Shown here piece by piece: positions 27,546-56,760 of a DNA stretch of 64,000 bases. The DNA lies in the NCBI GenBank assembly GCA_000990355.1, contig LBSX01000004.1, positions 1,757-65,756 of the forward strand, read 5' to 3'. The position numbers and the translations under genes are program-made. Every line of letters starts with the position of its first letter. Within the stretch, counting starts at the first letter, position 1. Under the pieces are notes generated by a model. That model ran no database searches and was not told where the DNA came from. It was given only the letters and a program-made list of their open reading frames with translations. Source of the stretch: Candidatus Magasanikbacteria bacterium GW2011_GWC2_37_14 (GTDB lineage: Bacteria > Patescibacteriota > Patescibacteriia > Magasanikbacterales > UBA922).

Positions 27546-27575
27546 GTGGACAAGAAATAGATAAAGCGTTATAAT

Positions 27576-27697
27576 TGTCATGCTGAATTTATTTCAGCAT
27601 CTTTTCGTTAAATAATTACACTAAGTAAATATAATCTTAAGAAAGATCCTGAAACCCTTCGGCATGAGCTCAGGTCGAATGCAAGTTCAGGATGACA
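27576..27697. mobile_element. MITE-like element, family 1 (copy E, long variant)
   Basis: TGTCATGCTGAATTTATTTCAGCATC, then AAGTAAATATAATCTTAAGAAAGATCCTGAAAC...CTCAGGTCGAATGCAAGTTCAGGATGACA. The ATG of the downstream ORF is the terminal ATGACA. Confidence 0.75.
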
Positions 27698-29755
27698 AAT
27701 TCTATGAATAAAATTATTGAAAAAATTGCCAAGTATCTCATCATCGCTTCGTTTTTCGTCCCGCTTATTGTTTTGCCAACCAGCTATATTTTTCCCTTCA
27801 TCGTTCCTAAGATTTTATGGTTTCGGAGTATTAGTTTGTTAATTTTTGCTAGTTATTTATTATTGTTATTTAGCAATTGGCAAAAATTTAAAATTAAATT
27901 TAATTTTTTAAATATTGCTGTTGGTTTGTTTTTTTTAAGTTTTATTGTTTCCACTTTTGTGGGAGTGGATTGGTACAAAAGTTTTTGGGATTCTCACGAA
28001 AGAATGCTGGGTTTGTTTACTTTGTTTCATTATTTACTTTATTACTTGGCTGTTAGCCGTCTCATTAATGGTTGGCCAGAATGGAAAGTGATCTTGCGTT
28101 GGTTTTTGGGTGCTGGGTTAATTGTAATGGTAATTGGCGGCATGCAACAAATTAATCCTGAACTTTTAATTAATCGTGGTGCTCATCGTGTTTCGGCCAC
28201 TCTTGGTAATGCGATATATTTTTCTGGTTATGGTTTGTTTTTATTTTTGCTTGGCTTGCTTTTGGCTATAAAAGAAAAAAAAACAACCCTTCGGCTGGGC
28301 TCAGGACAAGCCTTCTGGTTTTGGTATGCTTGTATAGGTAGTTTGTTTGGTTTTTTGGGAATATTTTGGGGTGGTACTCGTGGTACTACTTTGGGGTTGT
28401 TAGTGTCTTTGGCGGTTATATTTTTTGGTTATGTAATTACTACCAAAGAACACAAAAAATTAAGACAAATGTTATTGTTTTTATCGATATTTTTTATAGT
28501 AGTTTTGGGAATATTGTTTGTTTATCGGAAAAATGAAACCATAAAAAGTATTCCTACACTTGGCAGGTTGTTAAATGCTTCGATTACCGAAGGTAGTGGT
28601 CTTACGCGTTATATGGCTTGGGGGATTGCGGTTGAAGGCTTTAAAGAAAAACCAGTGTTTGGTTGGGGGCCAAATAATTATTATTATGCTTTTAATAAAT
28701 ATTATAACCCAGCGTTTTTAGAACATGGTTGGACTGAAACCTGGTTTGACAATGCTCATAGTGTCATTTTTAATACTTTGGCAGTACAAGGATTTACTGG
28801 TTTGGGTGCCTATCTATTAATGTTTATAGCTGGGGCTTGGATGTTAATTAAGGCTTATAGAAATAAAGGAATAGACCAGCATATTTTAGTATTAAGTATG
28901 GCATTTTTAGCTGGCCATTTTGTGCACAATGCTACAGTATTTGAAAATCCTACGTCATATTTATATTTCTTTTTCTTTTTGGCATTTATAAATTCACAAA
29001 CTGCAGATAACAAACAGCAGATAACAGATAACAAAAAAACATCAGAAATTTCTGTTGGTTTGCTAGTGACAATCGGTCTGATTTTATTGCTCATCATTTA
29101 CTCTACGAATATTAATCCTGGACGGGCAAATAATAATACTCTGCAAACTTTAATGGCTTTTTCTACTGGCAAGGATGTTTTTGGCCCTTATGAAATAGCC
29201 CAAAGTACTCCCACACCTCATATAGATGATATTCGTAGTGATTTTGCTCGTACTGCTATTCAAGCTTTGCCACAAATTTATCAAAGTAAACAAACAGATT
29301 TGGCCAACAAATTAGCTGATTTGGTAATTAATGAATTACAAAAGAATCTAGTTTTACACCCAATGGATATTCGTACTAATCTGGCTTTAAGTCAGGTTTA
29401 TGGTTTACGTGCTCAGGCAGAAAACAATGGGCAGTGGCTTCTAAAAAGTGAACAAATTTTAAATCAAGCTTTAAGTTATTCACCAAAAAGACAACAAGTG
29501 CTTTTTGTATTATCTAGTGTAGAATTAGGTTTGGGCAAAGTGCCTGAAAGTTTAAAATTAATCCAGCAAGCCTTGGATAGTGATAATAAAATTGCCGAAG
29601 GTTGGTGGCGCTTGGCAGTTACTTATGCGCAAATTGGCAACAAAAAAATGGCTATAGAAACCATTAATAAAGCAAAAAGTTTAAATATTGAGCCTACCGA
29701 AGAACAACAAGCTTTACTTGATCAGGTTATGGGTGTAAGTAGCACTCAAAAGTAG
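27692..29755 (+). CDS. O-antigen ligase-like (Wzy_C) polytopic membrane protein with C-terminal TPR repeats
   Basis: About 12 TM helices with a large periplasmic loop (WFDNAHSVIFNTLAVQG), then TPR-like C-terminal region. True start may be the second ATG at 27704. Confidence 0.55.
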   Translation: MTNSMNKIIEKIAKYLIIASFFVPLIVLPTSYIFPFIVPKILWFRSISLLIFASYLLLLFSNWQKFKIKFNFLNIAVGLFFLSFIVSTFVGVDWYKSFWDSHERMLGLFTLFHYLLYYLAVSRLINGWPEWKVILRWFLGAGLIVMVIGGMQQINPELLINRGAHRVSATLGNAIYFSGYGLFLFLLGLLLAIKEKKTTLRLGSGQAFWFWYACIGSLFGFLGIFWGGTRGTTLGLLVSLAVIFFGYVITTKEHKKLRQMLLFLSIFFIVVLGILFVYRKNETIKSIPTLGRLLNASITEGSGLTRYMAWGIAVEGFKEKPVFGWGPNNYYYAFNKYYNPAFLEHGWTETWFDNAHSVIFNTLAVQGFTGLGAYLLMFIAGAWMLIKAYRNKGIDQHILVLSMAFLAGHFVHNATVFENPTSYLYFFFFLAFINSQTADNKQQITDNKKTSEISVGLLVTIGLILLLIIYSTNINPGRANNNTLQTLMAFSTGKDVFGPYEIAQSTPTPHIDDIRSDFARTAIQALPQIYQSKQTDLANKLADLVINELQKNLVLHPMDIRTNLALSQVYGLRAQAENNGQWLLKSEQILNQALSYSPKRQQVLFVLSSVELGLGKVPESLKLIQQALDSDNKIAEGWWRLAVTYAQIGNKKMAIETINKAKSLNIEPTEEQQALLDQVMGVSSTQK

Positions 29756-31160
29756 TGGCAAGCATTTTTTCTAGTGTATAATTTGGTTTAGGGCTTTGTG
29801 TAAATTGTTCTTGCAAATTTTGATTAGAAATAATTTTTACTAAATTTTCTGCTAATAATTCCGAAGAAGCAGGGGAGAGCAACCCTGTTTTTTCATGTTC
29901 TATTAATTCGGGAATTCCACCAACGTTTGTGGCGACAATTGGCAAATTAGCGCTTAAAGCTTCCAAAATAGTATAAGGCAAACCTTCTTTTCTGGAAGGT
30001 AAAACAAAAATATCAAAGGCAGTTAAATATTGGCTAGCGTTTTCTATTGAACCAAGTAGGTGAATGTTGTTAATTTGTAATTTGTTTATTTGTTGTTGTA
30101 ATTTTTCATGTTCTGGCCCTTCGCCAATAATGATAAACTTGGCACTGTCATTGCGAGGAGCCTCAAAAGGCGACGAAGCAATCCCGCCGCTTTCATTACG
30201 AGCCTCGCTCGAGGGAGGCGTGGCAATCCCTTGCTTCATTGGGATTGCTTCGTCAGTCAATGCGAATTGACTTCCTCGCAATGACAATAACTTTACCGCC
30301 TCAATCAAAATATCAATTCCTTTAGTTTTATATAAATTAGCAATCGTACCTACCCAAATGTTACCACTGTCATCCCGACCGAGGCTCGCGACGAGTGGAG
30401 CCTGCCTGCCGGCAGAGGCAGGGGATCTCTTGGTGTTGTGTAAGGGATTCCTCGGTTCCGCTCCGCTACACTCGGAATGACAGACAGACGCTAAAAATCG
30501 TCTCGCCACATCTCTTTCCAAAAACACCGTCTTTTCAATTCCCAATGGTATTTTAACTAATTTGTTTTTTGCAATACCTAAATCCATTCCATCCTGATAA
30601 TCTTTATCCGACAAAACAATAATTTTATCTTTTAATTTAGCAGTAATTTTTTCCAAAAATCTATAAATTGTTTTTCTAAAATTGTTCATTGGCTCATTAA
30701 ACACCCAGCCGTGAACCGTGTACACCAACTTGTCATTGCGAGAAGTCCCGAAGGGCGACGAAGCAATCCCAAGTCTAGCAAGAGACCCAACAATTCCTGC
30801 TTTAGAGCTATTTAAATGTACAACATCTGGCTTTAGTGTTTTATATAGTCTTCTAAGCTCAAAAATAGCTAAAATATCATGCCAAGGACAAATTTTTCTT
30901 ACTAAATGTGAAAGTTGTACTATTGTTATGCTATTTGCCCCTCGGCCTGAGCTCGGGACGAAGGTTATCTGTTTTTTGTTATCTGCCAAAATTTTCTCTT
31001 GTAATTCCTTTTTTCTATTCTTTTCTCCCACAGCCACAAAAACCTGCCAGTCAGTAGGTGTATTAATAGCCAAGTCATATACATATCTCTGCGCTCCACC
31101 CCACTCACCTTGGGTAATTACATAGAGAATTTTCTTTTTTTGTTTATCTTGACTTTCCAT
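29727..31160 (-). CDS. GT4-family glycosyltransferase interrupted in-frame by three palindromic elements
   Basis: GT4 C-terminal motif PSRKEGLPYTILEALSANLPIVATNVGGIPELI. Inserted peptides SLARLGIASSPFGTSRNDK, ...ECSGAEPRNPLHNTKRSPASAGRQAPLVASLGRDDS and ...EAIPMKQGIATPPSSEARNESGGIASSPFEAPRNDS. A single ORF is maintained. Confidence 0.6.
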   Translation of the reverse strand: MESQDKQKKKILYVITQGEWGGAQRYVYDLAINTPTDWQVFVAVGEKNRKKELQEKILADNKKQITFVPSSGRGANSITIVQLSHLVRKICPWHDILAIFELRRLYKTLKPDVVHLNSSKAGIVGSLARLGIASSPFGTSRNDKLVYTVHGWVFNEPMNNFRKTIYRFLEKITAKLKDKIIVLSDKDYQDGMDLGIAKNKLVKIPLGIEKTVFLERDVARRFLASVCHSECSGAEPRNPLHNTKRSPASAGRQAPLVASLGRDDSGNIWVGTIANLYKTKGIDILIEAVKLLSLRGSQFALTDEAIPMKQGIATPPSSEARNESGGIASSPFEAPRNDSAKFIIIGEGPEHEKLQQQINKLQINNIHLLGSIENASQYLTAFDIFVLPSRKEGLPYTILEALSANLPIVATNVGGIPELIEHEKTGLLSPASSELLAENLVKIISNQNLQEQFTQSPKPNYTLEKMLATTFECYLHP

Positions 31161-31215
31161 AGTATTTATAGCATAATATATTTAGACTTTTTTTGCAAGA
31201 ATAAGCGGAAAAAAC

Positions 31216-31329
31216 TGTCATGCCTAACTAGTCTGTCATGCTGAATTTATTTCAGCATCTCTCTTAATATTAAAAAGATCCTGAAACCTTTCGGCGTGAG
31301 CTCAGGTCGAATGCAAGTTCAGGATGACA
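31216..31329. mobile_element. MITE-like element, family 1 (copy F, long variant with duplicated left terminus)
   Basis: TGTCATGCC...TGTCATGCTGAATTTATTTCAGCATC...GATCCTGAAACCTTTCGGCGTGAGCTCAGGTCGAATGCAAGTTCAGGATGACA. Confidence 0.75.
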
Positions 31330-32295
31330 ATTACTATGAACATTCTAATAACCGGTGTGGCAGGTTTTATAGGCTCGCACTTAGCCGAAGCCCTTATTGC
31401 CAATGGGCATCAGATAATTGGCGTAGATAATTTATTTACGGGGAGTTTGGAAAATATTAAGCATTTACAAAATAATGCTAATTTTAAGTTTATTGAACAC
31501 GATATTGTTGAACCTTTGTTTTTAGACCCTTCGGTAAACTCAGGGCAAGCGAAAATTGATCAAATTTACAATCTTGCCTGTCCTGCCTCGCCCATTCATT
31601 ATCAAAACAACGCGGTACATACTATCAAAGCTAATACTTTGGGTGTAATCAATATTTTGGGCTTGGCCCGAAAGTATGGGGCGACAATTTTACAAGCTTC
31701 TACCTCCGAAGTGTATGGCGACCCAGAAATTCACCCTCAAACAGAGGAATATCGTGGCAATGTAAACCCTATTGGTCCGCGAGCTTGTTATGACGAGGGT
31801 AAACGCGTAGCCGAGACTCTTTGTTTTGATTATCACCGCATGCACGGCTTAAAAATCAAAGTGGCCCGGATTTTTAATACTTATGGACCAAAAATGTCTT
31901 TTAATGACGGCCGAGTGGTTTCTAATTTTATTGTCCAAGCTTTACAAAACCAGCCAATTACGATTTATGGTCAAGGTGAGCAAACTCGTAGTTTTTGCTA
32001 TGTAAGTGATTTGGTAGAAGGGCTAATTAAATTAATGAACAGTGGAGAAGAAGTTACCGGGCCAATAAATTTAGGCAATCCTGAAGAATTTACTATTTTA
32101 GAATTAGCTAAAAAAGTTATTAATTTAACCAAAAGTTCTAGCGAATTAGTTTTTAAAGATTTGCCAGTAGATGATCCACAAAAACGTTGTCCTAATATTA
32201 CCAAAGCCAAAGAAATATTAAATTGGCAACCAGAAATTGATTTGGAAGAGGGACTAAAATTAACAATTAGTGAATTTAAAGAAAGATTATGTTAA
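31324..32295 (+). CDS. uxs: UDP-glucuronate decarboxylase (UDP-xylose synthase), SDR family
   Basis: Near-colinear with the UXS family: [78 protein letters not shown]. Likely real start at the second ATG, 31336. Confidence 0.85.
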
Positions 32296-32296
32296 C

Positions 32297-32354
32297 TGTC
32301 ATCCTGAATTTATTTCAGGATCCCTTGGGATTCTGAAACGAGTTCAGAATGACA
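32297..32354. mobile_element. MITE-like element, family 1 (minimal copy G, CCTGAA/CCTGAA variant)
   Basis: TGTCATCCTGAATTTATTTCAGGATCCCTTGGGATTCTGAAACGAGTTCAGAATGACA. Confidence 0.7.
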
Positions 32355-33128
32355 TTTTGTATTATGAAACAAAAAATTTGTTTTTTAGCAATAGACACCG
32401 AAGAGGACTTTATAAATAGTCAGACTGTTAATAGTTTTGAAGGGGTCAAAAATTTAAAATTAATTAGTCCAATTCTAAAAGAGTTTAAACTTCGGCCAAC
32501 TTTTTTTTGTACGGGTAAAGTCTTAGAAAATTTTGCTAGTTTATTTAAGCAATATCAAAATTTTGGTTGTGAAATTGCTTTACATGGTTTTTATGACCAT
32601 TTAAATATGAAAGAACAAAATCAAAAAGAACGAGAAGAAAAATTATCTAAACATTACAATTTATATCAAAATATTTTTAAGGAAGCACCAGTCGGTTTTC
32701 GCGCGGTGCAAAATACTATTGACGAAGCAGGTTTAAAACTATTAGAAAATAAATTTAAATACGATTCTAGTATAATTTCTTTTTATCCACATTTTAAAAA
32801 ATATATTGGTTATACTGGTAAAACTGCCAGTAAACTTTATCGGCCAGATAATTTAAATATTTTGGAAATTCCCTTAAATCCCTTGTTTGCTGGGGTGCAA
32901 TTGCAAGGTAAATGGCTTAGAGAATTAGGTGTAGTTTTTTATAAATTTTGGTTGAAAATAAAACAACCAGAGTTAATTAGCCTAAGTTTTCATAGTTGGG
33001 ATTTAAATCCAGAACAAAAAAATGGGGGAGAAATTTTTGTTGGTTATTTGCGAAAAATTATTTTACTCTTAAAAGAACAAGGTTATGAGTTTAAGAATGG
33101 CCAAGAAATTTATGGAGAATATAAATAA
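32349..33128 (+). CDS. polysaccharide deacetylase-like protein (CE4-like, tentative)
   Basis: IALHGFYDH His motif and size. Weak assignment. Confidence 0.3.
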   Translation: MTFCIMKQKICFLAIDTEEDFINSQTVNSFEGVKNLKLISPILKEFKLRPTFFCTGKVLENFASLFKQYQNFGCEIALHGFYDHLNMKEQNQKEREEKLSKHYNLYQNIFKEAPVGFRAVQNTIDEAGLKLLENKFKYDSSIISFYPHFKKYIGYTGKTASKLYRPDNLNILEIPLNPLFAGVQLQGKWLRELGVVFYKFWLKIKQPELISLSFHSWDLNPEQKNGGEIFVGYLRKIILLLKEQGYEFKNGQEIYGEYK

Positions 33129-34086
33129 CAATTTAAAAGAAATTACTAATTTGTTAGAATGGCAAAATTTTTTAGACAAAGCTGAACGCCAGCATTGTTT
33201 TTTTTCTGTTGTTTGGGAAAAGCAAGTGGAAAATTATTTTTCTGATTGGCAGTTTAAACATTTTTTATTCAAAGATAATTTTTTAGTTAGTGTTTTGGTG
33301 AATAAAGAAGGTAGAGCAGTGAGTGTGCCTTTTTCAGAAGTAGGTAACATTATTGCTTTAGATTATAGTCAAGAGCTTGATACAAATGATCTAAAAATCG
33401 TTTTAGCAAATATTTTTAACAGTTTTAAATTAACAGTCAACATTTTTTATTGCCCTGTAAAAAACATAGAAGAAACAATGTTGATAGATTATGTTTTGCC
33501 TTTAAACAAATTTAATTCTTTGGAAGAATTAGAAAACAACTATCGCAAAACTACACGTCAAGAAATTGAAAAGTCCAAAGTAGAAATAAAAGTAATGGAA
33601 AACATCAAAGAACTCAAACAAGTTTATAAATTATATTTAAAAAATATTCGGGCAAAAATGAATTTAGTTTTGCCATATAGTTTTTTTGAGTATTGGTTCC
33701 AAAACAAAGAAACTTTTTTGTTATCGCTGATGAACGGTAAAATTGTTGGTTTTTCGCTGTATTTAGAAAATAAAAATCTTACTCATTATTTTTTAAATGC
33801 TTCTAGTCTTGTAGGTAAACAAAGTGGCGCTACGCATGCACTTTTAAGTAGTCAAATTAAAAATAGTTTTAATAAACAAATAAAGTATTTTGAATTTGGC
33901 GGTACTAAAAAAGATTCAAATTTAGAAATATTTAAAAAGGGTTGGGGTGGAGAAGTTTATAATATTTATACTATTAGTAATCAAGAATTTGTAAACATCA
34001 AATCAAAAGGTCGTACTTTATGGAAATTCGTGCCGTTGTGTTTGTTACCGTATCTAAGTAAAATTTTGTGGAAGAGATTTTTATAA
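33085..34086 (+). CDS. FemAB-like / GNAT-fold acyltransferase family protein (tentative)
   Basis: About 330-aa two-lobed architecture common in glycan loci. C-terminal GWGGEVY. Overlaps the upstream gene, so the start is uncertain. Confidence 0.3.
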   Translation: MSLRMAKKFMENINNNLKEITNLLEWQNFLDKAERQHCFFSVVWEKQVENYFSDWQFKHFLFKDNFLVSVLVNKEGRAVSVPFSEVGNIIALDYSQELDTNDLKIVLANIFNSFKLTVNIFYCPVKNIEETMLIDYVLPLNKFNSLEELENNYRKTTRQEIEKSKVEIKVMENIKELKQVYKLYLKNIRAKMNLVLPYSFFEYWFQNKETFLLSLMNGKIVGFSLYLENKNLTHYFLNASSLVGKQSGATHALLSSQIKNSFNKQIKYFEFGGTKKDSNLEIFKKGWGGEVYNIYTISNQEFVNIKSKGRTLWKFVPLCLLPYLSKILWKRFL

Positions 34087-34087
34087 T

Positions 34088-35920
34088 ATGAAAATATTAA
34101 TGCCAGTTTTACATTATCATCCAATTATTGGTGGTTTTGAAATTTTTATAAAAAATATTTGTGATCGGCTTAAAGACAAGGCTGAAATTTTTGTGGTAAC
34201 TGGAAAAGTAAATAATCAGCCAGCTTTTGAGCAAAGTGCAGGTTTAAGAATTTATCGCAACGCTTCGTTGTTTACTTTAAAAGATTATTCTTATAGTTCT
34301 TATTGGTATATTTTTACCATGTTACCAATTTTATTTATTAAATCTTGGTCGTTAATCAAAAAAGAAAAAATTGAATTACTCCATGCCCAAGGTTATTTTA
34401 GTGGAATTATTTGTTTATTACTAAAAAAATTAACTGGCGTGCCTTATCTTATTACTATTCAATCAGCCGATTTTACAGTTTATCATTCCGAAGTAAAAGC
34501 AAATTTTATTGTCCGTTGGCAAGATAAACTAGAAAAAAAGGTTTACCGCGAAGCGAGTATTTGCCATGCTGTAAGTAATGATTTAGTAAAACATTTTGCC
34601 AATCAAGGTCGGACCGACGCGATAATGATTCCGAATGGTGTAGAAACCGACATTTTTAAACCAATTATATGGCAAGAAAAAAATAAAATAAGAAATGAAA
34701 TTGGTATCCGAGAAAAATTTGTAATTAGTTGTGTTTCGCGACTGCAAGAGAAAAATGGTACTCATGATTTAATTTCGGCAATTGCTTTGCTAAAAAAAGA
34801 GGGAATTGCTGTAGAATGCTGGATAATTGGTGACGGTCAAGAACGAGCTAGGCTAGAAAAATTAGTTGGTGAATTAAATATTAAAGATAATATAAAATTT
34901 TTGGGTCAAATTTTACACGAAGATGCAGGAAAATTGGTGGCAGCCACCGATTTGTTTGTGCGTCCTTCTTTGGCTGAAGGCTTTGGTATTGTTTATTTGG
35001 AGGCCTTTGCCTGTGGCGTGCCAGCAATTGGCACTCCGGTTGGAGGAATTCCAGACTTTATTGTTGAAGGGGAGACTGGTTTAATTTGTCAAGTTGCCAA
35101 CCCCAAAGATTTAGCAGAAAAAATAAAATTACTAATAAGTAATGAAGAATTAAGAAATAAAATTATTGCCAATAGTTTTAAATTGATAAAAGAAAAATAC
35201 AGTTGGGACAAGATTGCCGAAAAAATTCATAATCTTTATTTAGAAAATAATCAAAAAAATGATCAAATAAAAAAATGGGTCTCTGAATTTAGAGTTAGAA
35301 ATAATTGGGATTCGGCCAAACAAAGAAAAGTTCAAGAAAAAGAAGCAAAATATATTTATAATTTTTTTAAAAAAATAGCTTTACCAAATAAAAATATTTT
35401 AGAAATTGGCAGTGGCAATGGTTATTTAGGTGCTTATTTAATTGAGTTGTTTTCTAAAAATGAAAAAATAAAGTATACTTTTTCTGATCTTATTCCTGAA
35501 TGTGTGGAATTGTGTAAAAAAAATACTGTATTATTAAAGAATGATAATATATTTTACAAAGTATTAGATGTTTATAACCCGGGAAATATTTCTGGTTATA
35601 ATATAATAATTTCCACGGGCTATGCGTCGGCAGCAACTTACAAAGAAGCAGTGCCAATTTTAGCAAAAAATATCCAAAGTGGGGCATATTTAATTTGTGA
35701 TTTTGTTAATCATTTTTCAATATTTGTTTTTTTTCAGCACCCTTACAATAGATTAAAACAATTTATTAAATATCTACTAAAGAAATCAGACAAGAAAAAT
35801 TATCATTTTGGAAAATTAGGTATAAAAAATTATTTTGGTGTTTATGATTTAAAATTAGTAAAGATAAATAGTTTAAGGTTTAGAAGAAATCCGTTTATAG
35901 CAGTTTTTAAAAAAATATGA
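34088..35920 (+). CDS. GT4 glycosyltransferase fused to C-terminal class I SAM-methyltransferase-like domain
   Basis: GT4 motif EGFGIVYLEAFACGVPAIGTPVGGIPDFI (residues ~290-330). C-terminal motif I LEIGSGNGYLG. Confidence 0.65.
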   Translation: MKILMPVLHYHPIIGGFEIFIKNICDRLKDKAEIFVVTGKVNNQPAFEQSAGLRIYRNASLFTLKDYSYSSYWYIFTMLPILFIKSWSLIKKEKIELLHAQGYFSGIICLLLKKLTGVPYLITIQSADFTVYHSEVKANFIVRWQDKLEKKVYREASICHAVSNDLVKHFANQGRTDAIMIPNGVETDIFKPIIWQEKNKIRNEIGIREKFVISCVSRLQEKNGTHDLISAIALLKKEGIAVECWIIGDGQERARLEKLVGELNIKDNIKFLGQILHEDAGKLVAATDLFVRPSLAEGFGIVYLEAFACGVPAIGTPVGGIPDFIVEGETGLICQVANPKDLAEKIKLLISNEELRNKIIANSFKLIKEKYSWDKIAEKIHNLYLENNQKNDQIKKWVSEFRVRNNWDSAKQRKVQEKEAKYIYNFFKKIALPNKNILEIGSGNGYLGAYLIELFSKNEKIKYTFSDLIPECVELCKKNTVLLKNDNIFYKVLDVYNPGNISGYNIIISTGYASAATYKEAVPILAKNIQSGAYLICDFVNHFSIFVFFQHPYNRLKQFIKYLLKKSDKKNYHFGKLGIKNYFGVYDLKLVKINSLRFRRNPFIAVFKKI

Positions 35921-38533: not shown

Positions 38534-38535
38534 CT

Positions 38536-42038: not shown

Positions 42039-42044
42039 AGATCT

Positions 42045-43515: not shown

Positions 43516-43530
43516 TTTAACCCCAAAACA

Positions 43531-44148: not shown

Positions 44149-44163
44149 TTATTTTTTAGTTGG

Positions 44164-45252: not shown

Positions 45253-45266
45253 AATTAAATAATATT

Positions 45267-45893
45267 ATGATGACTCCCTGGCGAGAATTATTTTATAAAA
45301 AATTAAAGGGGCTTAAATTGGAAGGTGAAGTTTTGGATATGGGTGGAGCCGTAGACGCCGATTATCATAATTTGTTTCAAAAAAAAGATGGTACTCATAT
45401 TTATGTTTTAGGATTTGATAAAAATTATGGTTATGACATACAAGCTGATCTAGAAAAAGCAACCACTTTGAATAATAATCAATATGATACAGTCCTTTGT
45501 TTTAATCTTTTGGAACATATCTTTAATTATGAGAATGTTTTACAAGAAAGTTATCGAGTACTTAAAATTAATGGTCAATTTTTGTTAGCTGTGCCCTTTT
45601 TGTTTAATTTACATCCTTGTCCAGCGGATTATTGGCGTTTTTCTGGGGATTGTTTAAGAAAAAATTTGGAAAAAACTGGTTATCGCAATATTGAAGTGAT
45701 AGAAATTTATACGGGTTTATTTGAGACCTTATTTCAAATTGCTTATAATTTTTATGGGTTTAATTTTTTAAGATTTGTTTTTAAAAAGATTGCTATCTTT
45801 TTGGATTTACTACTGGGTTTAATTGGCGGAATCAAGTATAAAAATTTAATTAAAAATTATCCCTTGGGTTATTTGGTAAAAGCATACAAATAA
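45267..45893 (+). CDS. class I SAM-dependent methyltransferase
   Basis: VLDMGGAVDADY, FNLLEHIFNYENVLQESYRVLKINGQFLLAVP. Confidence 0.55.
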   Translation: MMTPWRELFYKKLKGLKLEGEVLDMGGAVDADYHNLFQKKDGTHIYVLGFDKNYGYDIQADLEKATTLNNNQYDTVLCFNLLEHIFNYENVLQESYRVLKINGQFLLAVPFLFNLHPCPADYWRFSGDCLRKNLEKTGYRNIEVIEIYTGLFETLFQIAYNFYGFNFLRFVFKKIAIFLDLLLGLIGGIKYKNLIKNYPLGYLVKAYK

Positions 45894-45895
45894 AT

Positions 45896-47563
45896 ATGGG
45901 AAACAGAAAAGTTTTGGTGGCTATTAACGATTTAAACTTTGGCGGAGCACAAAAATTGGCTGTTGAACAAGCCAATCGTTTGTTTGTTTTGGGTTACAAA
46001 GTATCATTCTTAATTTTTTTTGATAACCGAGAACAGAGTTTTGAAAAAAAAATATTGTCGGGAATTAATATCTATAAAATTAAAAATTCTAAGTTTAATT
46101 TTATAACATTTTTTAGGTGTTTTAAATTCATTTATAAAAATAGATTTGATTTAATTTTTACTCATTTATTCTTTTCTAATACTTTGGTTAGAGCTGTTTC
46201 AATATTTTTGTGGAGAAAACCGTTTATTATTTCCTATGAACACAACGTGTATACTGGACAGAAAAGTTCACTCTCTCTACAAATAGATTACTTTTTATCT
46301 AGTCGTTCTGATTTAATAATTGCCGTCTCTGAGGAGGTTAAAAATTATTTGATTGAGAAAAGGATTAATTCGAAAAAGATATTATTGGTTAACAATGGTA
46401 TTAACTTGTTAGAACCAAAAAATTTAGTTAATTTAAAAAGAAAAGAATTAAATATTAGCAATGATAAATTTATAATTGTTTCGGTTGGCAATGTTGATTA
46501 TCAAAAAGGTCATGATATTTTGGTTGAGGCAGCAAATTTAATTATTAAAAAATTTCCCAATTGTATTTTTTTGGTTTGTGGAAATGATAGTAATAAGGTT
46601 ATGGTGGATAAGATAAAAGCCAAGATAGTTAAATATGGATTAGAGAATGAATTCAAATTACTAGGTAATAGAGCTGATGTAGAAGAAATTGTGGAAGCTG
46701 CTGATATTTTTGTGATGCCTTCTCGATTTGAAGGATTGAGCATTGCTCTGCTTGAAGCCATGTCACTTAAAAAAGCTATTGTCGTATCGGACATAGACAG
46801 TATGAAAAATATTTTGACCAATGGCAATAATGGTATATTTTTTTCTACCGAAGATCCTGTTGATTTAGCAGAAAAAATAATTGGCTTAGTTCCTGATTCT
46901 ATTTTGAGAGAAAAGTTGGGTAGAGTAGCCTATTCAACGGTTCAAAATTATTCAATTGAAAATAATGTTATTAATATAATTAAGGCTGTTGAATCATTAA
47001 AAAAAAGGAAACATTATTTTTTTAATAAGTATAATTTGAATCATCAAAAATCACTTAAGTGGACAGAGAGGTCCAAAGAAGCATTGGAGTTGTTTAAAAA
47101 TATAAATTTTACAAACAAAATTATAAAAATTGCTGACTTGGGTTGTGGTGATAAAAAATTATTTGAATTAATTAATAAACTTAAAAATTTGGAATTTACA
47201 TATAAAGGTTTTGATATAATGCCACAAGCCGATGATGTAGAAAAAATAAATTTGTCTGAAAACGTTATTAATGAAGAGTTTGACGTTGTTTTTTGTCTTG
47301 GATTAATTGAATATTTAAAAAATATTGATTTTTTCTTTGCAAATTTAGTAAAAATATCTAACTATGTTATATTGAGTTGTGTAGTTAGTGATTATGCTGA
47401 TTATAATGAAAAAGTAATTCGTAGAAAAGGTTGGGAAAATTATTTATCTGTTAAACAATTAGAGATGTTAATTAAAAAATACGGTTTTGAGATTATTAAA
47501 AGTAAAATGATTGATAACGGAGTAACTTATCTGTGTATTTTAAAAAAGATAGAAACTAAATAA
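45896..47563 (+). CDS. GT4 glycosyltransferase fused to C-terminal SAM-methyltransferase-like domain
   Basis: N-terminal GT4 (MPSRFEGLSIALLEAMSLKKAIVVSDIDSM). C-terminal IADLGCGDKKLFE...FDVVFCLGLIEYL. Confidence 0.6.
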   Translation: MGNRKVLVAINDLNFGGAQKLAVEQANRLFVLGYKVSFLIFFDNREQSFEKKILSGINIYKIKNSKFNFITFFRCFKFIYKNRFDLIFTHLFFSNTLVRAVSIFLWRKPFIISYEHNVYTGQKSSLSLQIDYFLSSRSDLIIAVSEEVKNYLIEKRINSKKILLVNNGINLLEPKNLVNLKRKELNISNDKFIIVSVGNVDYQKGHDILVEAANLIIKKFPNCIFLVCGNDSNKVMVDKIKAKIVKYGLENEFKLLGNRADVEEIVEAADIFVMPSRFEGLSIALLEAMSLKKAIVVSDIDSMKNILTNGNNGIFFSTEDPVDLAEKIIGLVPDSILREKLGRVAYSTVQNYSIENNVINIIKAVESLKKRKHYFFNKYNLNHQKSLKWTERSKEALELFKNINFTNKIIKIADLGCGDKKLFELINKLKNLEFTYKGFDIMPQADDVEKINLSENVINEEFDVVFCLGLIEYLKNIDFFFANLVKISNYVILSCVVSDYADYNEKVIRRKGWENYLSVKQLEMLIKKYGFEIIKSKMIDNGVTYLCILKKIETK

Positions 47564-47566
47564 AAT

Positions 47567-48607
47567 ATGAATTATTCTGTTCTCACACCTTATTTAATAC
47601 CCAAAGAGTTAGAGGGTTATAAAATACAAAATATTGGCGATGGTTTTATTTTATTGGCCATTAAAAATATTCTAGAACCATTTAATGCTCTTTTTGAATT
47701 TTCAAGCAGAAAAATTTTGGTTCAAGAAGACTTTGACAAAATTAATTCTACTAAGGCTTTAATTGTAGCGGGTGCTAATCCGTTAAATGATGAATATACG
47801 ATAAGCCCTAGTTTGAATTTAGAATCATTAAAAAAAATTAAAGTACCAATTATTTTTTTAGGAGTAGGTTACAGTGGTCTTGATTCGTTAAATTTAAAAA
47901 TGACGAATTTAACAAAAAATATTCTTTTGCAAGTTCATTCGGGTATTGAATATAGTTCGTGGCGTTGCCCAATTACCGTAAGATATTTAGAAGCTAATAT
48001 TCCAGAAATAAAATCAAAATTTTTGATGACTGGTTGCCCTGTTATTTACGGAGAAAAACTTTTGTCGGGACAGCCATTTACTGATAACCCAGAGAGAATA
48101 GCCGTCACGATTACCGAGCGTGGTAATTGGTGGGGTAGAGAGAAGAAGACTATAGATTTTGTAGCGAATAAGTTTAAAGGTAAAGAATTATTTCTAGTAT
48201 TGCATCAGGATTTTACTAAGAAAAAATTAAAAACTAAGATTAAAGATTTGTTAAAATTAAATCCACCTGCCAGACTAATTCACTGGTATGCCCAATGTAA
48301 GGGTTTTAAAATAATTAAGCCAGTTTCGGTAGAAATTTGCCAACACTTTTATGACTCTTGTGATTTGCATATTGGTAGCAGGTTACATGCTCACTTGTAT
48401 TGTTTAAGCAATTGTTCCAAATCATTTTTAACCTATGTTGATGGAAGGGCTACAGGTTTTTCGGAATATTTAGGTTTTCCTGCTGTGGATGTTGATAATA
48501 TAGAATCATTTTTAGATTATGATTTTGAAATTTACAGAACTAATGTTTTAAAACATTATAAAAATATGAATTTTTTTATTAATTATCTAAAAGAAAAGAT
48601 TTTATGA
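47567..48607 (+). CDS. hypothetical protein (possibly polysaccharide pyruvyl-transferase-like)
   Basis: Size and locus context only. Confidence 0.25.
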   Translation: MNYSVLTPYLIPKELEGYKIQNIGDGFILLAIKNILEPFNALFEFSSRKILVQEDFDKINSTKALIVAGANPLNDEYTISPSLNLESLKKIKVPIIFLGVGYSGLDSLNLKMTNLTKNILLQVHSGIEYSSWRCPITVRYLEANIPEIKSKFLMTGCPVIYGEKLLSGQPFTDNPERIAVTITERGNWWGREKKTIDFVANKFKGKELFLVLHQDFTKKKLKTKIKDLLKLNPPARLIHWYAQCKGFKIIKPVSVEICQHFYDSCDLHIGSRLHAHLYCLSNCSKSFLTYVDGRATGFSEYLGFPAVDVDNIESFLDYDFEIYRTNVLKHYKNMNFFINYLKEKIL

Positions 48608-49161
48608 GCCCAAAAGTTTTTAAGTGTTTTGAAAAAATTATTCAAAATTATTATGAGCAAAAGTCAAAACCGTTAAGCGTAATTGAGCTTGGCGCTTATT
48701 ACTGGAGTTTGCTTAAAATTGATACTTTTGCTAATTCTCGCAAAGTGGCTTTTAATCTCTCTTTTACTGATGGTGACAAATTAGCTCTAAAAGATTATGA
48801 AATAGTCGAAGGTAATATAAATAATTTACCATTTAAAGACAATGAACTTGATTGCATTTTATCCTGTTCGGTATTTGAACATGACAAATATTTTTGGAAG
48901 TCGTTTGCTGAAATAAATAGAGTAATTAAAATTGGTGGTTTGTTGGTTATAGGAGTACCAGTTTATGTTTCTCTAAAAACTGATTGTTTAAATACAACTT
49001 TAACTTATCACCGCCATGGAAAAAATTATAATGCTGATTTTTATCGATTTAGCGAACAGGCAGTTAGAGAAGTATTTTTTGAAGGATATAAAATAGTCGC
49101 CACTCAATTAGTGCGAAGATATCCCAATCCTTATTTGATAATGGCGGGTATAAAACTCTAA
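48604..49161 (+). CDS. SAM-dependent methyltransferase (type 11-like)
   Basis: LSCSVFEHDKYFWKSFAEINRVIKIGGLLVIGVP. Confidence 0.5.
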   Translation: MSPKVFKCFEKIIQNYYEQKSKPLSVIELGAYYWSLLKIDTFANSRKVAFNLSFTDGDKLALKDYEIVEGNINNLPFKDNELDCILSCSVFEHDKYFWKSFAEINRVIKIGGLLVIGVPVYVSLKTDCLNTTLTYHRHGKNYNADFYRFSEQAVREVFFEGYKIVATQLVRRYPNPYLIMAGIKL

Positions 49162-49195
49162 TTATTTATTACCCTATTTATTTTATAGAAGCAGT

Positions 49196-50590
49196 TTAGG
49201 CCCGAGCAAATAGCTGGTTTTTGAGAGAAGAAAAAAGTTTTTTTAATTTATAAAAAGTTTCTTGGGCATATTCTCTGGCTACATAAAAAGCGAAGTGGCT
49301 GTAAGGATGTTTGATCGTGTAAATAAGTTTTGCTTTGTTAAATTTTTTTACAGCTTTTCTTTGCAAAGTAACAATTTCTTCTTTGGTAAAATTTTCAGTT
49401 TCAAAACAAGGATCAAATCTAGTGAAATCAAAGTCTCGATCTATTTCATATCCCATATTAATCGTTTGATCATAAATTTCAGTATTGGGAAGTGGGGTGA
49501 GAACAGAAAATTGGGCGTCATAGGGCAAAATCTGGCAAGCAAAATCAATGGTGTCTTCGATCATTTTTTTTGTTTCCCAGGGAAAGCCAATCATCATATA
49601 AGCTTTGGAAACTATACCAACTTTTCTACATAAAGACATGGCCTTTGCCGATTCCTCAGGTTTAATCATTTTATTTATTCTTAGAAGTGTTTCCGGAGAA
49701 CTAGATTCAATACCAAAAGCAATTTCTTGACAGCCAGCTTTTTTCATTAGCCGCATTAAATATTCATCTAAGACATTTACTCGGGATAGGCAACGCCACA
49801 ATATTTTTAATTTTTTTTCTAATATTAAATTACAAATATCAATTAGCCTTTGTTTATCGACTGTAAAATTATCATCATAAATTATAAAAGCCCGATAATT
49901 AAAAGTATTGTATAAGTATTCAATTTCAGCTATTACGTTTTTGGCACTACGGCGTCTATAAATTTTTCCATGAAAGTCATGGAAACAAAAAGAACATCTA
50001 AATGGACAACCACGAGAAGTTATAATGTTGGTAGCTTTTTTTAGAAAGAATTTAGAGTTATATCTTGGTAGATTAAATATTGATCGATCTACTATTGGTA
50101 TTGTATCAAGGTCTTTGATTATTGGTTCTGCTTCACTAGTAATTACTTCTTCGCCTTTTTTGTACACCAAATTGGTCACTTGTTCTAATGATATTTTTTC
50201 ATCTAAATAATCTAGCAGTTTAAGAAAAGTTTTTTCACTTTCACCTTTAAGGACAAAAGTTTTAATTTGTTCAACAGTTTTTCTTTTTAAATATTCTTCG
50301 GGTTCAGAAGTTGATTGGGGGCCACCGAATACCACATTGTAGTCTTTTAGTAGCTCAGCAATTTTAAGAGCTTCTTTTTTTGAACGAATAGTTGAAGTAA
50401 TACCTACTAATTTTGGATTATGTTGTTTGATTTCCACAATTAAATCAGCATATTTTTTTTGTTCTATTTCTAAATCTATAATTTTAACACTGTGTCCGGC
50501 AACTTTTGCTACTGTACCAATATAGCCCAGGCCCAAAGGAGGAAAGTTGTCATAGCCTACAGTTTTTGGTTGAATTAAACAAATATTCAT
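49196..50590 (-). CDS. B12-binding domain radical SAM enzyme (second copy)
   Basis: N-terminal B12-binding-like region. SRGCPFRCSFC CxxxCxxC motif. Confidence 0.7.
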   Translation of the reverse strand: MNICLIQPKTVGYDNFPPLGLGYIGTVAKVAGHSVKIIDLEIEQKKYADLIVEIKQHNPKLVGITSTIRSKKEALKIAELLKDYNVVFGGPQSTSEPEEYLKRKTVEQIKTFVLKGESEKTFLKLLDYLDEKISLEQVTNLVYKKGEEVITSEAEPIIKDLDTIPIVDRSIFNLPRYNSKFFLKKATNIITSRGCPFRCSFCFHDFHGKIYRRRSAKNVIAEIEYLYNTFNYRAFIIYDDNFTVDKQRLIDICNLILEKKLKILWRCLSRVNVLDEYLMRLMKKAGCQEIAFGIESSSPETLLRINKMIKPEESAKAMSLCRKVGIVSKAYMMIGFPWETKKMIEDTIDFACQILPYDAQFSVLTPLPNTEIYDQTINMGYEIDRDFDFTRFDPCFETENFTKEEIVTLQRKAVKKFNKAKLIYTIKHPYSHFAFYVAREYAQETFYKLKKLFSSLKNQLFARA

Positions 50591-51939
50591 AGGTTTGTTG
50601 TTTCTAGTGATTTCTTAGTAGTTTCTTTTAATGATATTATTGTTGCTAATACTAAATTAAAAATGCCAGCTAATAGTTTTCCGGTCATGATTCCTATAAT
50701 TCCCAGTGGGCTTAACAAAACAATTGCCGAAATTTGAATAATGGAACTGGTTATGGATAAATGTAATATTTTTTTCTGACTTTTTTTGGCGTATAAAACC
50801 GAGTAGGGAATAATAGTCGCCGAAGTAATTAAAATTAATGAATAAATTTGTGAATAAGCAATTGATTCAAGATAATTAGGGAAAAATAGTTTATAAATTA
50901 TAGGAGAGATTATTATATAAATAATAATTAGTGGGATAATAATAAAAATTAATTTGAGTATTGAGGGGAGTATTTTAGCTTGCCAATTTTTTTTATCGGA
51001 ATTTAAAAATTTTGTAAAAACCATTATTTGTAAAGACCTTAGCATGTCTTTCATTATTTCTGGTGGAATAACTGCAAAAAGAAAAATAGCTACCTCTTTG
51101 GCTCCCAGGTAATGGAAGATCAGTATTTTATCAAATTGTTCAGAGATTGTTTCTAGAGCGTTAATGACTGACAAATTTTTTCCATATTTAACAATTGATT
51201 TGCCGGTTGTTAAGTTGGAAGTTATCTCAGGGTTTGGGTCATTTTTTATTTTTTTAAATGTAAATTTTAGTATTATTAAATTGGTAAGAGTAATAACTGT
51301 AAAATAAACAATTAGCAAAGTAAGTATGTTGGTTGTTTGTGTAATGGTAATTATCATTGCTAAAAGATAAACTATTTTGCTAATAGTTTGGTAATAGTTT
51401 AGTTTTTTAAATTCATTTTTTCCATTAAGAATATTTACATAAATAGTAGAAGAATAAAAAAGAGGTATAAAAAAACTACTAATTAAAAAGCAAGTGAACA
51501 AAAGATTGTCGCCTTGGTAATAATAATATGCAGATAATAAGATACTAACAACTGTGCCAATAATTCCATATTGATTTTTTTTCCAAAAACAAAATAAAAT
51601 ATCTTTTTTTGTTGTCCCGGTAATCACTGCTTGGGTTATGGCTGTGGACATTCCTTGCAAAGTTATAATGGCAATTACTCCTATTACCGATAAGATAAAT
51701 TTGTATAATCCATAAGTTTCTTTAGGTAGATTATGGGCAATAAAGACTGATAAAACAAAATTAATTAAAGCCCCAATAATTTGGTTGGAAGTAAGCCAAA
51801 AACTGCCTTTGGCAAAATAAAGCATGTCAATTCGGGTGTATTTTTGGCTCCAAATTAGCGCTGTCTTGATTTTTTCTCTAATTTTGTTAAAATTCATATG
51901 TTCGTTTTTAATTTTAGCATAAATAGGCTTAAAAGCCAA
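50587..51939 (-). CDS. Wzx-type polysaccharide/O-unit flippase (MOP superfamily)
   Basis: About 12-14 TM helices, no soluble domain, typical Wzx length. Confidence 0.55.
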   Translation of the reverse strand: MAFKPIYAKIKNEHMNFNKIREKIKTALIWSQKYTRIDMLYFAKGSFWLTSNQIIGALINFVLSVFIAHNLPKETYGLYKFILSVIGVIAIITLQGMSTAITQAVITGTTKKDILFCFWKKNQYGIIGTVVSILLSAYYYYQGDNLLFTCFLISSFFIPLFYSSTIYVNILNGKNEFKKLNYYQTISKIVYLLAMIITITQTTNILTLLIVYFTVITLTNLIILKFTFKKIKNDPNPEITSNLTTGKSIVKYGKNLSVINALETISEQFDKILIFHYLGAKEVAIFLFAVIPPEIMKDMLRSLQIMVFTKFLNSDKKNWQAKILPSILKLIFIIIPLIIIYIIISPIIYKLFFPNYLESIAYSQIYSLILITSATIIPYSVLYAKKSQKKILHLSITSSIIQISAIVLLSPLGIIGIMTGKLLAGIFNLVLATIISLKETTKKSLETTNL

Positions 51940-52697: not shown

Positions 52698-52699
52698 AT

Positions 52700-56722: not shown

Positions 56723-56760
56723 GTAGAGACGTCCCGAATGCGGGACGTCTCTATTTTATT
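56723..56760. terminator. intrinsic terminator after ugd
   Basis: agagacgtcccg-aat-gcgggacgtctct followed by a T-run. Confidence 0.6.

Follow-up and report, generated by a model that had tools for sequence, protein, structure and literature searches.

What does a radical S-adenosylmethionine (SAM) enzyme with a B12-binding domain do in the midst of glycosyltransferase genes, and is a locus of this kind peculiar to the organism in which it was noticed? The question is raised by a block of genes between positions 27692 and 51939 in a 64,000-nt stretch of Candidatus Magasanikbacteria bacterium GW2011_GWC2_37_14, which belongs to the candidate phyla radiation (CPR)/Patescibacteria; the full stretch is called the window below. 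The block encodes two such enzymes, rSAM1 and rSAM2, each 100% identical to a protein recorded for this organism, together with family 4 glycosyltransferases (GT4s) and SAM-dependent methyltransferases (MTs), and a preliminary description of this DNA had ascribed to it an unusually high modification capacity. Comparison with related loci reveals that this capacity is not exceptional but normal for the lineage, because similar cores with one to four B12-binding radical SAM enzymes and several MTs recur across the CPR. It also reveals that rSAM1, on sequence identity far better conserved than the GT4s beside it, is a signature gene of these loci.

The loci compared were the genomic contexts of rSAM1 homologs together with loci from scanned species-representative genomes, with open reading frames (ORFs) classed by similarity to the window genes; domains were called at Pfam gathering scores, and NCBIfam curated cut-offs were also applied. 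One core gene order recurs in ~30 loci from at least eight named CPR lineages, among them Magasanik-, Falkow-, Uhr-, Buchanan-, Kuenen-, Komeili- and Portnoybacteria and other Parcubacteria. It runs (large secreted Thr/Ser-rich protein), Wzy_C/TPR (one or two copies), GT4_a on the opposite strand, optional genes for UXS, UDP-glucose 6-dehydrogenase (UGDH) and an epimerase, a GT4, GT4_b, rSAM1, GT4_c, GT4_d and a variable tail. The corresponding genes of the window are as follows.

23834..27478, plus strand: 1214-aa secreted surface protein, without a Pfam or NCBIfam match
27692..29755, plus strand: Wzy_C-TPR polytopic membrane protein (Wzy_C 60.8 bits; TPR_8 at the cut-off)
29727..31160, minus strand: GT4_a, core, divergent (Glycos_transf_1 115.7 bits, plus Glyco_transf_4)
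31324..32295, plus strand: UXS, UDP-glucuronate decarboxylase (407 bits to human UXS1)
34088..35920, plus strand: GT4-MT fusion 1 (Glycos_transf_1 151.9 bits; C-terminal class-I MT-like domain)
35917..37110, plus strand: GT4_b, core, directly upstream of rSAM1 (Glycos_transf_1 139.7 bits)
37088..38533, plus strand: rSAM1 (B12-binding 66.2 bits, Radical_SAM 71.3 bits)
38536..39615, plus strand: GT4_c, core, directly downstream of rSAM1 (Glycos_transf_1 148.1 bits)
44164..45252, plus strand: GT4_d, core (Glycos_transf_1 71.2 bits)
55221..56711, plus strand: UGDH family (three UDPG_MGDP_dh domains; TIGR03026 254.9 bits against a cut-off of 189.8)
61753..62664, plus strand: WbgU/WbpP-like UDP-hexose(NAc)/uronate 4-epimerase (Epimerase 211 bits; PDB WbgU E 2.6e-60, WbpP E 7e-58)

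The glycosyltransferases of this core keep their places while diverging in sequence. GT4_a orthologs are 30-48% identical, with position and orientation kept in nearly all loci; the GT4 part of fusion 1, itself a core member, has orthologs of 27-36% identity in all loci; orthologs of GT4_b (24-55%) lie directly upstream of rSAM1 in most loci and those of GT4_c (24-47%) after it, and GT4_d (31-47%) directly follows GT4_c in the other loci. Across the ~30 loci, rSAM1 is 63-75% identical, against about 24-49% for the adjacent GT4 orthologs. At least 120 rSAM1 cluster representatives align over the full length at 62-76% identity across CPR classes, and beyond the orthogroup identity drops to 46% or less for the closest relatives, as seen in a library with clustering at 50% identity. 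Judged from this gap, and from the far lower values of the GT4 neighbours, rSAM1 is a discrete and strongly constrained orthogroup.

The position of rSAM1 bears on the reading that the radical SAM enzymes are merely co-located with the glycan genes and act on a non-carbohydrate substrate, such as the neighbouring surface protein (a C-methylation like those of ribosomally synthesized and post-translationally modified peptides, RiPPs) or a scavenged lipid. The class does include peptide and lipid modifiers, sub-threshold matches to RiPP, ladderane and methyl-coenzyme M reductase (MCR) glutamine methylases were obtained, and the extreme conservation of rSAM1 next to fast-evolving GT4s would fit a separate role. 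Yet rSAM1 lies between the same GT4 orthologs in ~30 loci, with frames that overlap or abut; in the window its first 23 nt lie within the 3' end of GT4_b, and GT4_c begins after a gap of 2 nt. Moreover, the extra B12-binding radical SAM paralogs and the distant relatives in other phyla are also found among glycosyltransferase, MT and sugar-nucleotide genes, and no precursor-peptide or lipid-synthesis genes are adjacent. We therefore regard mere co-location as improbable.

In clear contrast to rSAM1, rSAM2 and most of the MTs belong to the variable tail and not to the core. The tail, export and modification genes of the window are given here.

32349..33128, plus strand: polysaccharide deacetylase, CE4-like (Polysacc_deac_1 40.9 bits against a cut-off of 23.1)
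33085..34086, plus strand: FemAB/GNAT-like acyltransferase candidate, weak (sub-threshold matches)
43531..44148, plus strand: MT_a, SAM-dependent methyltransferase (Methyltransf_11 57.6 bits)
45267..45893, plus strand: MT_b, methyltransferase-fold (Methyltransf_23 36.6 bits, Methyltransf_11 34.8 bits)
45896..47563, plus strand: GT4-MT fusion 2, variable tail (Glycos_transf_1 123.5 bits; Methyltransf_23 28.6 bits against a cut-off of 27)
47567..48607, plus strand: polysaccharide pyruvyl transferase (PS_pyruv_trans 42.7 bits against a cut-off of 25.3)
48604..49161, plus strand: MT_c, methyltransferase-fold (Methyltransf_11 46.6 bits)
49196..50590, minus strand: rSAM2, variable tail (B12-binding 51.8 bits, Radical_SAM 80.9 bits)
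50587..51939, minus strand: Wzx-type (MOP superfamily) flippase (Polysacc_synt 65.6 bits, Polysacc_synt_3 48.2 bits; ~10 transmembrane (TM)-like segments)

Throughout the CPR loci the tail is made up of MTs, zero to three extra B12-binding radical SAM paralogs, asparagine-synthase-like amidotransferases, acetyltransferases, GT2s and Wzx. One related locus (L016) has the distal tail of the window, namely MT_b, fusion 2, the pyruvyl transferase, MT_c, rSAM2 and Wzx, with identities to the window proteins of 42% for fusion 2, 48% for the pyruvyl transferase and 57% for MT_c. Many of the 21-kb loci L008, L011, L017, L020, L025, L031 and L032 hold three or four B12-binding radical SAM paralogs among their GT4s; the extra copies are 28-38% identical to rSAM1 or rSAM2, and in several loci one directly follows rSAM1. 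The contigs of L008, L014, L016, L020 and L021 are titled 'uncultured Gammaproteobacteria bacterium' (third-party annotation, TPA, assemblies), but as their loci have CPR-type architecture we treat these labels as unreliable, and the contigs are probably mislabelled metagenome-assembled genomes.

The block is a genuine surface-glycan locus, and to this extent the preliminary description stands: its ORF coordinates all match ORFs in our map, and Pfam confirms its Wzy_C plus TPR protein, six GT4s, polysaccharide deacetylase, Wzx, UGDH and epimerase. Its boundaries and content were nevertheless incomplete, four elements having been overlooked: the pyruvyl transferase, a CotH-VTC-DUF4956 cassette, an adjacent pair of 5'-methylthioadenosine phosphorylase (MTAP) and adenine phosphoribosyltransferase (APRT), and the 1214-aa secreted Ig-repeat protein.

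What chemistry would rSAM1 bring to such a core? Both radical SAM proteins had been noted to combine a CxxxCxxC motif with a B12-like N-terminal domain, and motif and Pfam results agree. The motif reads CPHICTFC in rSAM1 and CPFRCSFC in rSAM2; the cobalamin-binding profile PF02310, whose absence would have told against the earlier proposal, detects both N-terminal domains with the scores listed above against a cut-off of 32.1 bits, and the Radical_SAM scores likewise exceed their cut-off of 29.5 bits. Across an alignment of 69 sequences, neither the CxxxCxxC cysteines nor the Rossmann-domain GG motif (G96/G97) varies. By these profiles, the architecture of both proteins is that of class B radical SAM enzymes. 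The AlphaFold2 (AF2) model of rSAM1 (predicted local distance difference test, pLDDT, 88.9) matches the solved cobalamin-dependent enzymes MgmA/QCMT, OxsB, TsrM, CysS and TokK, and also AprD4, to a comparable degree. By sequence, the PDB entry closest to rSAM1 is 9CCB, a structure of the MCR glutamine C-methyltransferase MgmA/QCMT. The two proteins share 27% identity with each other, and rSAM2 has as its best PDB sequence match AprD4 (E 4e-22, radical SAM core only).

Neither protein reaches a curated NCBIfam cut-off: the top match of rSAM1 is HpnJ (148 against 577.6 bits), followed by TIGR04013 and PhpK, and that of rSAM2 is BchE (201 against 481 bits), followed by HpnJ (175 against 577.6 bits) and PhpK. 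Assignment to a curated family (HpnJ, BchE, PhpK, HpnR, MgmA/TIGR04014, BzaD or the ladderane radical SAM enzymes) was accordingly rejected, all scores being far below cut-off. A division into methylases and non-methylases by PDB sequence, profile or fold was likewise abandoned, MgmA, OxsB, TsrM, TokK, CysS and AprD4 being nearly equivalent in these comparisons.

Several chemistries come into consideration. MoeK5 C-methylates during the stepwise assembly of a lipid-linked oligosaccharide, HpnJ performs a ring contraction of a sugar on lipid-linked glucosamine, and AprD4 dehydrates a 1,2-diol of an aminoglycoside sugar without cobalamin. The C-methylated product proposed in the preliminary description has precedents in the sugar C-methylating class B enzymes GenK, GenD1, Fms7 and MoeK5, but the chemistry cannot be read from the sequence or fold of rSAM1 or rSAM2; most characterised class B enzymes are methylases, and MoeK5, Fom3 and HpnJ co-cluster in a similarity network (PMC9204698). 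C-methylation would be the single most likely reaction of rSAM1, an assignment in which our confidence falls somewhat short of even.

Radical chemistry on a sugar without methylation, namely ring contraction that yields a cyclitol or furanose-like unit (as by HpnJ and OxsB), 1,2-diol dehydration towards a deoxy sugar (as by AprD4, chiefly for rSAM2), oxidation or epimerisation, ranks second for rSAM1 and is possible but rather unlikely for the two enzymes together. It is suggested by the best NCBIfam matches (HpnJ for rSAM1, BchE and HpnJ for rSAM2), by AprD4 as the best PDB match of rSAM2, by a profile of both families that finds AprD4, OxsB and QCMT at nearly equal E-values, and by the occurrence of Rossmann-like N-terminal domains without cobalamin in AprD4 and ArsL (PMC12931638). 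However, AprD4 is matched over the radical SAM core alone, no AprD3-like reductase partner is evident beside rSAM2, and the N-terminal domains pass the Pfam B12-binding cut-off with an invariant GG motif; the preponderance of methylases in the class also tells against it. Cobalamin binding by rSAM1 and rSAM2 is likely from their domain content, yet not certain because the comparable domains of AprD4 and ArsL are cobalamin-free.

The distribution of rSAM2 differs from that of rSAM1. Only five relatives have 60-66% identity and the next are at most 44% identical (35-44% in diverse taxa), so that rSAM2 is, as far as its relatives tell, a sporadic tailoring enzyme. More distant relatives (~34-37% identical) occur on three contigs, one from Omnitrophica, one from Methanobacterium and another large one, in all of which the neighbours are glycosyltransferase, MT, PMT and sugar-nucleotide genes. 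In the Omnitrophica locus (L035, 6970-9395) the relative is translationally coupled to a SPASM-domain radical SAM protein, with GT2s, an aminotransferase and a PMT on its flanks, and in the Methanobacterium locus (L036, 4124-5536) it is accompanied by UGDH, a GT2, an MT and a PMT. Because the Omnitrophica and Methanobacterium relatives sit in such surroundings, the link of rSAM2-type enzymes to glycan loci reaches beyond the CPR.

The O-methylating part of the proposal fared unevenly. Of the five MT domains, the three stand-alone ones and the one that ends fusion 2 exceed a Pfam gathering score; the one that ends fusion 1 matches MTS and Methyltransf_16/31/12, all below gathering scores. The SAM-binding residues are recognisable as a motif I in three of the five, canonical in fusion 1 (ILEIGSGNG) and MT_a (LDIGCGEG) and partial in fusion 2 (ADLGCGDK), but motif I is degenerate in MT_b (LDMGGAVD) and MT_c (IELGAYYW). 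The three stand-alone SAM MTs of the preliminary description hence all pass Pfam, two of them with this defect. Its two GT4-MT fusions do have the same architecture, but they are only 24% identical and carry different MT subtypes, and for this reason they look, by sequence, to have arisen independently. That one is a duplicate of the other was ruled out on the same two grounds and by the fusion 1 orthologs being mostly unfused; these carry the MT only in some loci, e.g., L003 and L014.

With regard to the sugars supplied, the UXS call is secure: the match to human UXS1 (4GLL/2B69) is full-length, with an E-value of 6e-121 over residues 6-322, whereas the next short-chain dehydrogenase/reductase, UDP-glucose 4-epimerase, scores 144 bits. 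A supply of UDP-xylose, as had been predicted, is further borne out by UGDH, which provides the UXS substrate UDP-glucuronate. From UXS, UGDH and the epimerase we infer that the window glycan would contain xylose and glucuronic acid and possibly galacturonic acid or N-acetylgalactosamine. The deacetylase is closest to the XrtA-system type (TIGR03006 E 3.9e-17, sub-threshold), and the FemAB-like call downstream of it stands only as a weak one (LPG_synthase_C E 2e-3 and TIGR03019 pepcterm_femAB E 3.7e-5, far below cut-offs), with no significant PDB match for the protein at 33085-34086. On these assignments the glycan may also be expected to contain an amino sugar that is N-deacetylated and perhaps acylated again, as well as a pyruvate ketal and several O-methyl groups.

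These results allow the original reading to be weighed as a whole, that is, that both radical SAM enzymes are cobalamin-dependent C-methyltransferases giving a glycan or glycolipid that contains xylose, is C-methylated and heavily O-methylated, and is peculiar to this organism. The domains of both proteins score above Pfam cut-offs, the best solved relative of rSAM1 in sequence and fold is the C-methyltransferase MgmA/QCMT, sugar C-methylating enzymes of the class are known, UXS is confirmed and at least three MT domains look competent; but the non-methylases HpnJ, BchE, OxsB and AprD4 score equally or better, no family cut-off is reached, the SAM loops of MT_b and MT_c are degenerate, and the type of locus is common across the CPR and not specific to this genome. 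Taken together, this reading is possible, and we can grant it only tentative credence.

A further set of genes distinguishes the window from its relatives, a cassette that is inserted, together with MT_a, between GT4_c and GT4_d.

39594..42038, plus strand: CotH kinase-like protein with right-handed beta-helix, membrane-anchored (CotH 53.2 bits, Beta_helix 37.7 bits)
42045..42860, plus strand: VTC-domain, polyphosphate polymerase-like protein (VTC 137.6 bits)
42841..43515, plus strand: DUF4956/MgtC-like membrane protein (DUF4956 59.2 bits; ~4 TM-like segments)

The cassette is absent from all other CPR loci examined, and a place in the conserved system was rejected on this ground. The CotH protein has an N-terminal TM segment and matches CotH of known structure (PDB 5JD9, E 1.4e-6). 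In the predicted topology of the cassette CotH would be exported, VTC cytoplasmic and DUF4956 in the membrane, which hints at extracellular phosphorylation linked to polyphosphate, and the window glycan would then possibly be phosphorylated by the exported CotH-like protein. The same set is known as accessory genes beside Gram-positive Pel exopolysaccharide operons (10.1101/768473).

To what would the finished oligosaccharide be attached? The Wzy_C superfamily comprises O-antigen ligases, polymerases and O-oligosaccharyltransferases, and the window member has ~10 TM-like segments with the TPR domain C-terminal to the last. Its assignment to any one of these three activities was attempted and given up, NCBIfam and PDB matching the TPR part only and the membrane part finding no informative PDB match. 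Wzy_C occupies this position in most related loci. In Buchananbacteria loci a PMT-family GT-C enzyme and a stand-alone TPR protein stand there instead, as in L003, and other loci have a TPR protein and two Wzy_C paralogs (L003, 1170-3534; L001, 1169-6328).

The adjacent 1214-aa protein has a signal/TM peptide and is acidic, with 20.5% Thr plus Ser and 6.2% Lys plus Arg. It has 145 homologs, nearly all of 1110-1300 aa and annotated 'hypothetical', from Magasanik- and Uhrbacteria; the N-terminal ~200 aa are highly conserved and the remainder is variable. In its AF2 model (pLDDT 88.5) an alpha/beta domain is followed by a disordered linker rich in Thr (around residues 245-253) and then by ~9 Ig-like beta-sandwich domains in tandem; for this model Foldseek returned only generic Ig-repeat surface proteins, e.g., PrgB, antigen I/II and alpha-2-macroglobulin. 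In at least 10 related loci, comparable large Thr/Ser-rich ORFs lie upstream of Wzy_C. By its composition and position, the protein is a candidate glycan acceptor or S-layer-like partner. To call it a proven S-layer protein was not accepted, as it has no Pfam, NCBIfam or PDB sequence match and only generic Foldseek matches; S-layer identity stays a hypothesis. In the database search its best match was 48% identical and its own sequence was not returned, though both radical SAM proteins were found at 100%; the gene may be called differently in the public record, or the word index may have reached its limit.

Transfer of the oligosaccharide onto this protein, as in S-layer-type O-glycosylation, is favoured because Thr/Ser-rich proteins adjoin the Wzy_C/TPR genes, because L003 has PMT and TPR proteins at that place, and because the window itself has one Wzy_C gene only and no separate polymerase candidate; on this evidence we propose it tentatively. 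The product may instead be a free or wall-linked Wzx/Wzy polymer (capsule, exopolysaccharide (EPS) or secondary cell-wall polymer (SCWP)), with Wzy_C-TPR as the polymerase and the 1214-aa protein unglycosylated but possibly binding the polymer through its N-terminal domain, as SLH domains bind pyruvylated SCWP. Such a polymer is consistent with the presence of Wzx and a Wzy_C protein, with the two Wzy_C paralogs of many loci, with the pyruvyl transferase, with the conserved ~200-aa N-terminus, which fits a wall-anchoring module, and with the XrtA/EPS-type deacetylase and FemAB-like matches. Against this, no chain-length regulator or initiating transferase was seen among the window ORFs scanned, the pyruvyl transferase is a tail gene seen only in the window and L016, the 1214-aa protein has no SLH domain, and the PMT-family enzyme with TPR in L003 fits protein transfer better. 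A polymer is the main rival, about as likely as transfer to the protein and likewise well short of an even prospect.

Putting these elements together, we propose the following pathway. The five conserved GT4s would build a lipid-linked oligosaccharide at the cytoplasmic face of the membrane from donors that include the UXS and UGDH products, UDP-xylose and UDP-glucuronate. Acting between the second and third GT4s of this assembly line, rSAM1 would carry out a radical C-H functionalisation of a core sugar, most likely a cobalamin-mediated C-methylation, with ring contraction or dehydration as alternatives. The variable tail would then decorate the product through up to five SAM-dependent MT domains (O-methylation), rSAM2, the pyruvyl transferase, the deacetylase and the GNAT/FemAB-like acyltransferase, to which the CotH-VTC-DUF4956 cassette would add in the window locus uniquely. 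Finally, Wzx would flip the product and Wzy_C-TPR would transfer it to an acceptor, for which the adjacent 1214-aa secreted Thr/Ser-rich Ig-repeat protein is favoured, or polymerise it. That the block is one instance of a conserved CPR envelope glycoconjugate locus working in this manner is a reading that we hold with moderate confidence, at a little better than even. Gene content, domain identities, the nature of UXS, synteny and the difference in conservation between rSAM1 and the genes beside it are established by the data, whereas the substrate, the chemistry, the use of cobalamin, the acceptor and the sequence of steps are inferred.

Several points weigh against this pathway. The enzymatic part draws on sequence and models, with no curated family cut-off reached by either radical SAM protein, and the two are as close to non-methylases (HpnJ, OxsB, BchE, AprD4) as to methylases; AprD4 and ArsL share a similar N-terminal domain without cobalamin (PMC12931638), and at least one CPR genome that has been studied, that of a Parcubacterium, cannot make B12 (PMC5220378). 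As for the decoration and the acceptor, two of the five MT domains have the degenerate motif I described above, and the 1214-aa protein is without a recognised S-layer or SLH domain and has generic Ig-repeat fold matches. No initiating phosphoglycosyltransferase (Bac_transf or WecA/MraY-type) was found among the 44 window ORFs scanned; Bac_transf genes do lie near the core in L005 and L007. Lastly, the two Wzy_C paralogs of many related loci are compatible with a polymerase plus a ligase and hence with a polymer.

The proposed pathway is worth comparing with systems already known. A B12-binding radical SAM gene among glycosyltransferase and uronic-acid/epimerase genes is also found in the MoeK5 and the GenK/GenD1/Fms7 pathways, and here as there the known or proposed target of the enzyme is a sugar within a lipid-linked or oligosaccharide intermediate. 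The likeness to moenomycin biosynthesis extends to the window epimerase, which also matches MoeE5, and to MoeK5 sharing its network neighbourhood with HpnJ, the top NCBIfam match of rSAM1. However, rSAM1 and rSAM2 are likened to MoeK5 and GenK by context and through HpnJ in the network, with no curated cut-off reached, and the moenomycin, gentamicin and fortimicin pathways belong to actinomycete secondary metabolism, whereas the CPR genes form a lineage-wide envelope locus with Wzx and Wzy_C. The hopanoid pathway HpnI/HpnK/HpnJ similarly joins a glycosyltransferase, a deacetylase and a class B radical SAM enzyme on a lipid-linked amino sugar; it differs in that both window proteins fall far below the HpnJ cut-off, the CPR locus has no hopanoid genes, and the window deacetylase is of the CE4 type and lies outside the conserved core.

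S-layer and protein O-glycosylation clusters (Geobacillus stearothermophilus slg with WsaB/WsaE, Paenibacillus alvei, Tannerella forsythia; PMC2943079, PMC6120980) resemble the CPR loci in their multiple glycosyltransferases, MTs, flippase and Wzy_C-family transferase beside a large secreted-protein gene. Glycosyltransferase-MT fusions (WsaE) and O-methyl caps occur in these clusters, and the Tannerella glycan has xylose, uronic acids and a methyl group. We know of no radical SAM enzyme in them, and, unlike theirs, the 1214-aa CPR protein lacks SLH or other S-layer domains, its glycosylation being only putative. Wzx/Wzy O-antigen, capsule and EPS loci, including XrtA/PEP-CTERM systems, share Wzx, Wzy_C, several GT4s, sugar-nucleotide genes and a low-GC variable region, and XrtA systems also the pair of deacetylase and FemAB-like protein; they differ from the window in that the ORFs scanned include no initiating phosphoglycosyltransferase, chain-length regulator, PEP-CTERM protein or exosortase, and that an invariant radical SAM gene stands inside the glycosyltransferase block. 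In the Gram-positive Pel loci, CotH, polyphosphate polymerase and DUF4956 families are likewise contiguous at an exopolysaccharide locus (Whitfield et al., 10.1101/768473), but the window cassette stands in a GT4/Wzx-type locus and not in an operon for a Pel synthase, lacks DUF4832 and has its CotH domain joined to a beta-helix. In kind, therefore, the locus is a Wzx-type surface-glycan locus; new are the hyperconserved class-B-type radical SAM gene within its glycosyltransferase block and the frequent extra paralogs.

The novelty anticipated by the preliminary description is upheld as far as the open-access literature goes, which yielded nothing on B12-dependent radical SAM enzymes in CPR/Patescibacteria envelopes and no characterised case of a class B enzyme acting on a cell-surface polysaccharide or glycoprotein. 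The envelope structure and biogenesis of all CPR bacteria studied remain unclear (PMC5220378), and the locus offers a concrete and widely conserved genetic handle on them. A broader proposal, which we put forward as speculative and rather unlikely in its entirety, is that rSAM1 is a CPR-wide cobalamin-dependent step making a signature sugar, C-methylated or ring-rearranged, in the core of an envelope glycan, possibly an S-layer-like protein O-glycan, and that class B glycan tailoring is widespread in uncultivated anaerobic bacteria and archaea. If so, the ~70% identity of rSAM1 across CPR classes would point to an invariant and chemically unusual envelope sugar that could serve as a lineage biomarker or a phage/host receptor. 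Envelope biogenesis would need cobalamin scavenged from the host or community, since B12 synthesis is missing from those CPR genomes in which it was looked for, and a specific nutritional dependency would thereby be added to the episymbiotic lifestyle. The Omnitrophica and methanogen loci would make the family a good target for enzyme discovery.

The layout of the locus can be followed in the ORF map. The 17 plus-strand genes at 31324-49161 follow one another closely, either overlapping or only a few bases apart, and the hairpin scan found within this run no terminator-like hairpin comparable to the strong one at 56723-56754, after UGDH. A promoter-like site lies at 27547-27575, ahead of the Wzy_C-TPR gene. 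GC is 0.26-0.32 across 32-56 kb against 0.35-0.43 in the flanks, low GC being usual for surface-glycan loci.

Next to the Wzx gene, 14 nt from its divergent start, begins the MTAP/APRT pair.

51954..53233, plus strand: MTAP plus APRT (NCBIfam)

The MTAP part just exceeds its cut-off (TIGR01694, 275.5 against 274.85 bits) and several APRT models score over theirs. An orthologous pair (59/60% identity) lies inside the glycan locus of another Magasanikbacteria genome (L030, ~6.5-8 kb), between GT4_a and UXS. 5'-Deoxyadenosine is an inhibitory by-product of radical SAM enzymes, and because of the known substrate range of MTAP the pair could dispose of it; MTAP/APRT may salvage adenine from the 5'-deoxyadenosine and 5'-methylthioadenosine made by the radical SAM and other SAM-dependent enzymes.

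Other genes near the locus are also of note. An extracytoplasmic function (ECF) sigma factor and a DUF5667 membrane protein, probably its anti-sigma factor (21732-23369), lie directly upstream of the gene for the 1214-aa protein and could regulate envelope genes. Two further large secreted proteins flank the locus, one of 1237 aa with a lamin-tail domain (58028-61741) and a DUF11 protein of 616 aa (18696-20546, minus strand); surface proteins abound in this region. A 387-aa protein (53510-54673) of this non-sporulating CPR bacterium contains a SleB-type cell-wall hydrolase domain (Hydrolase_2).

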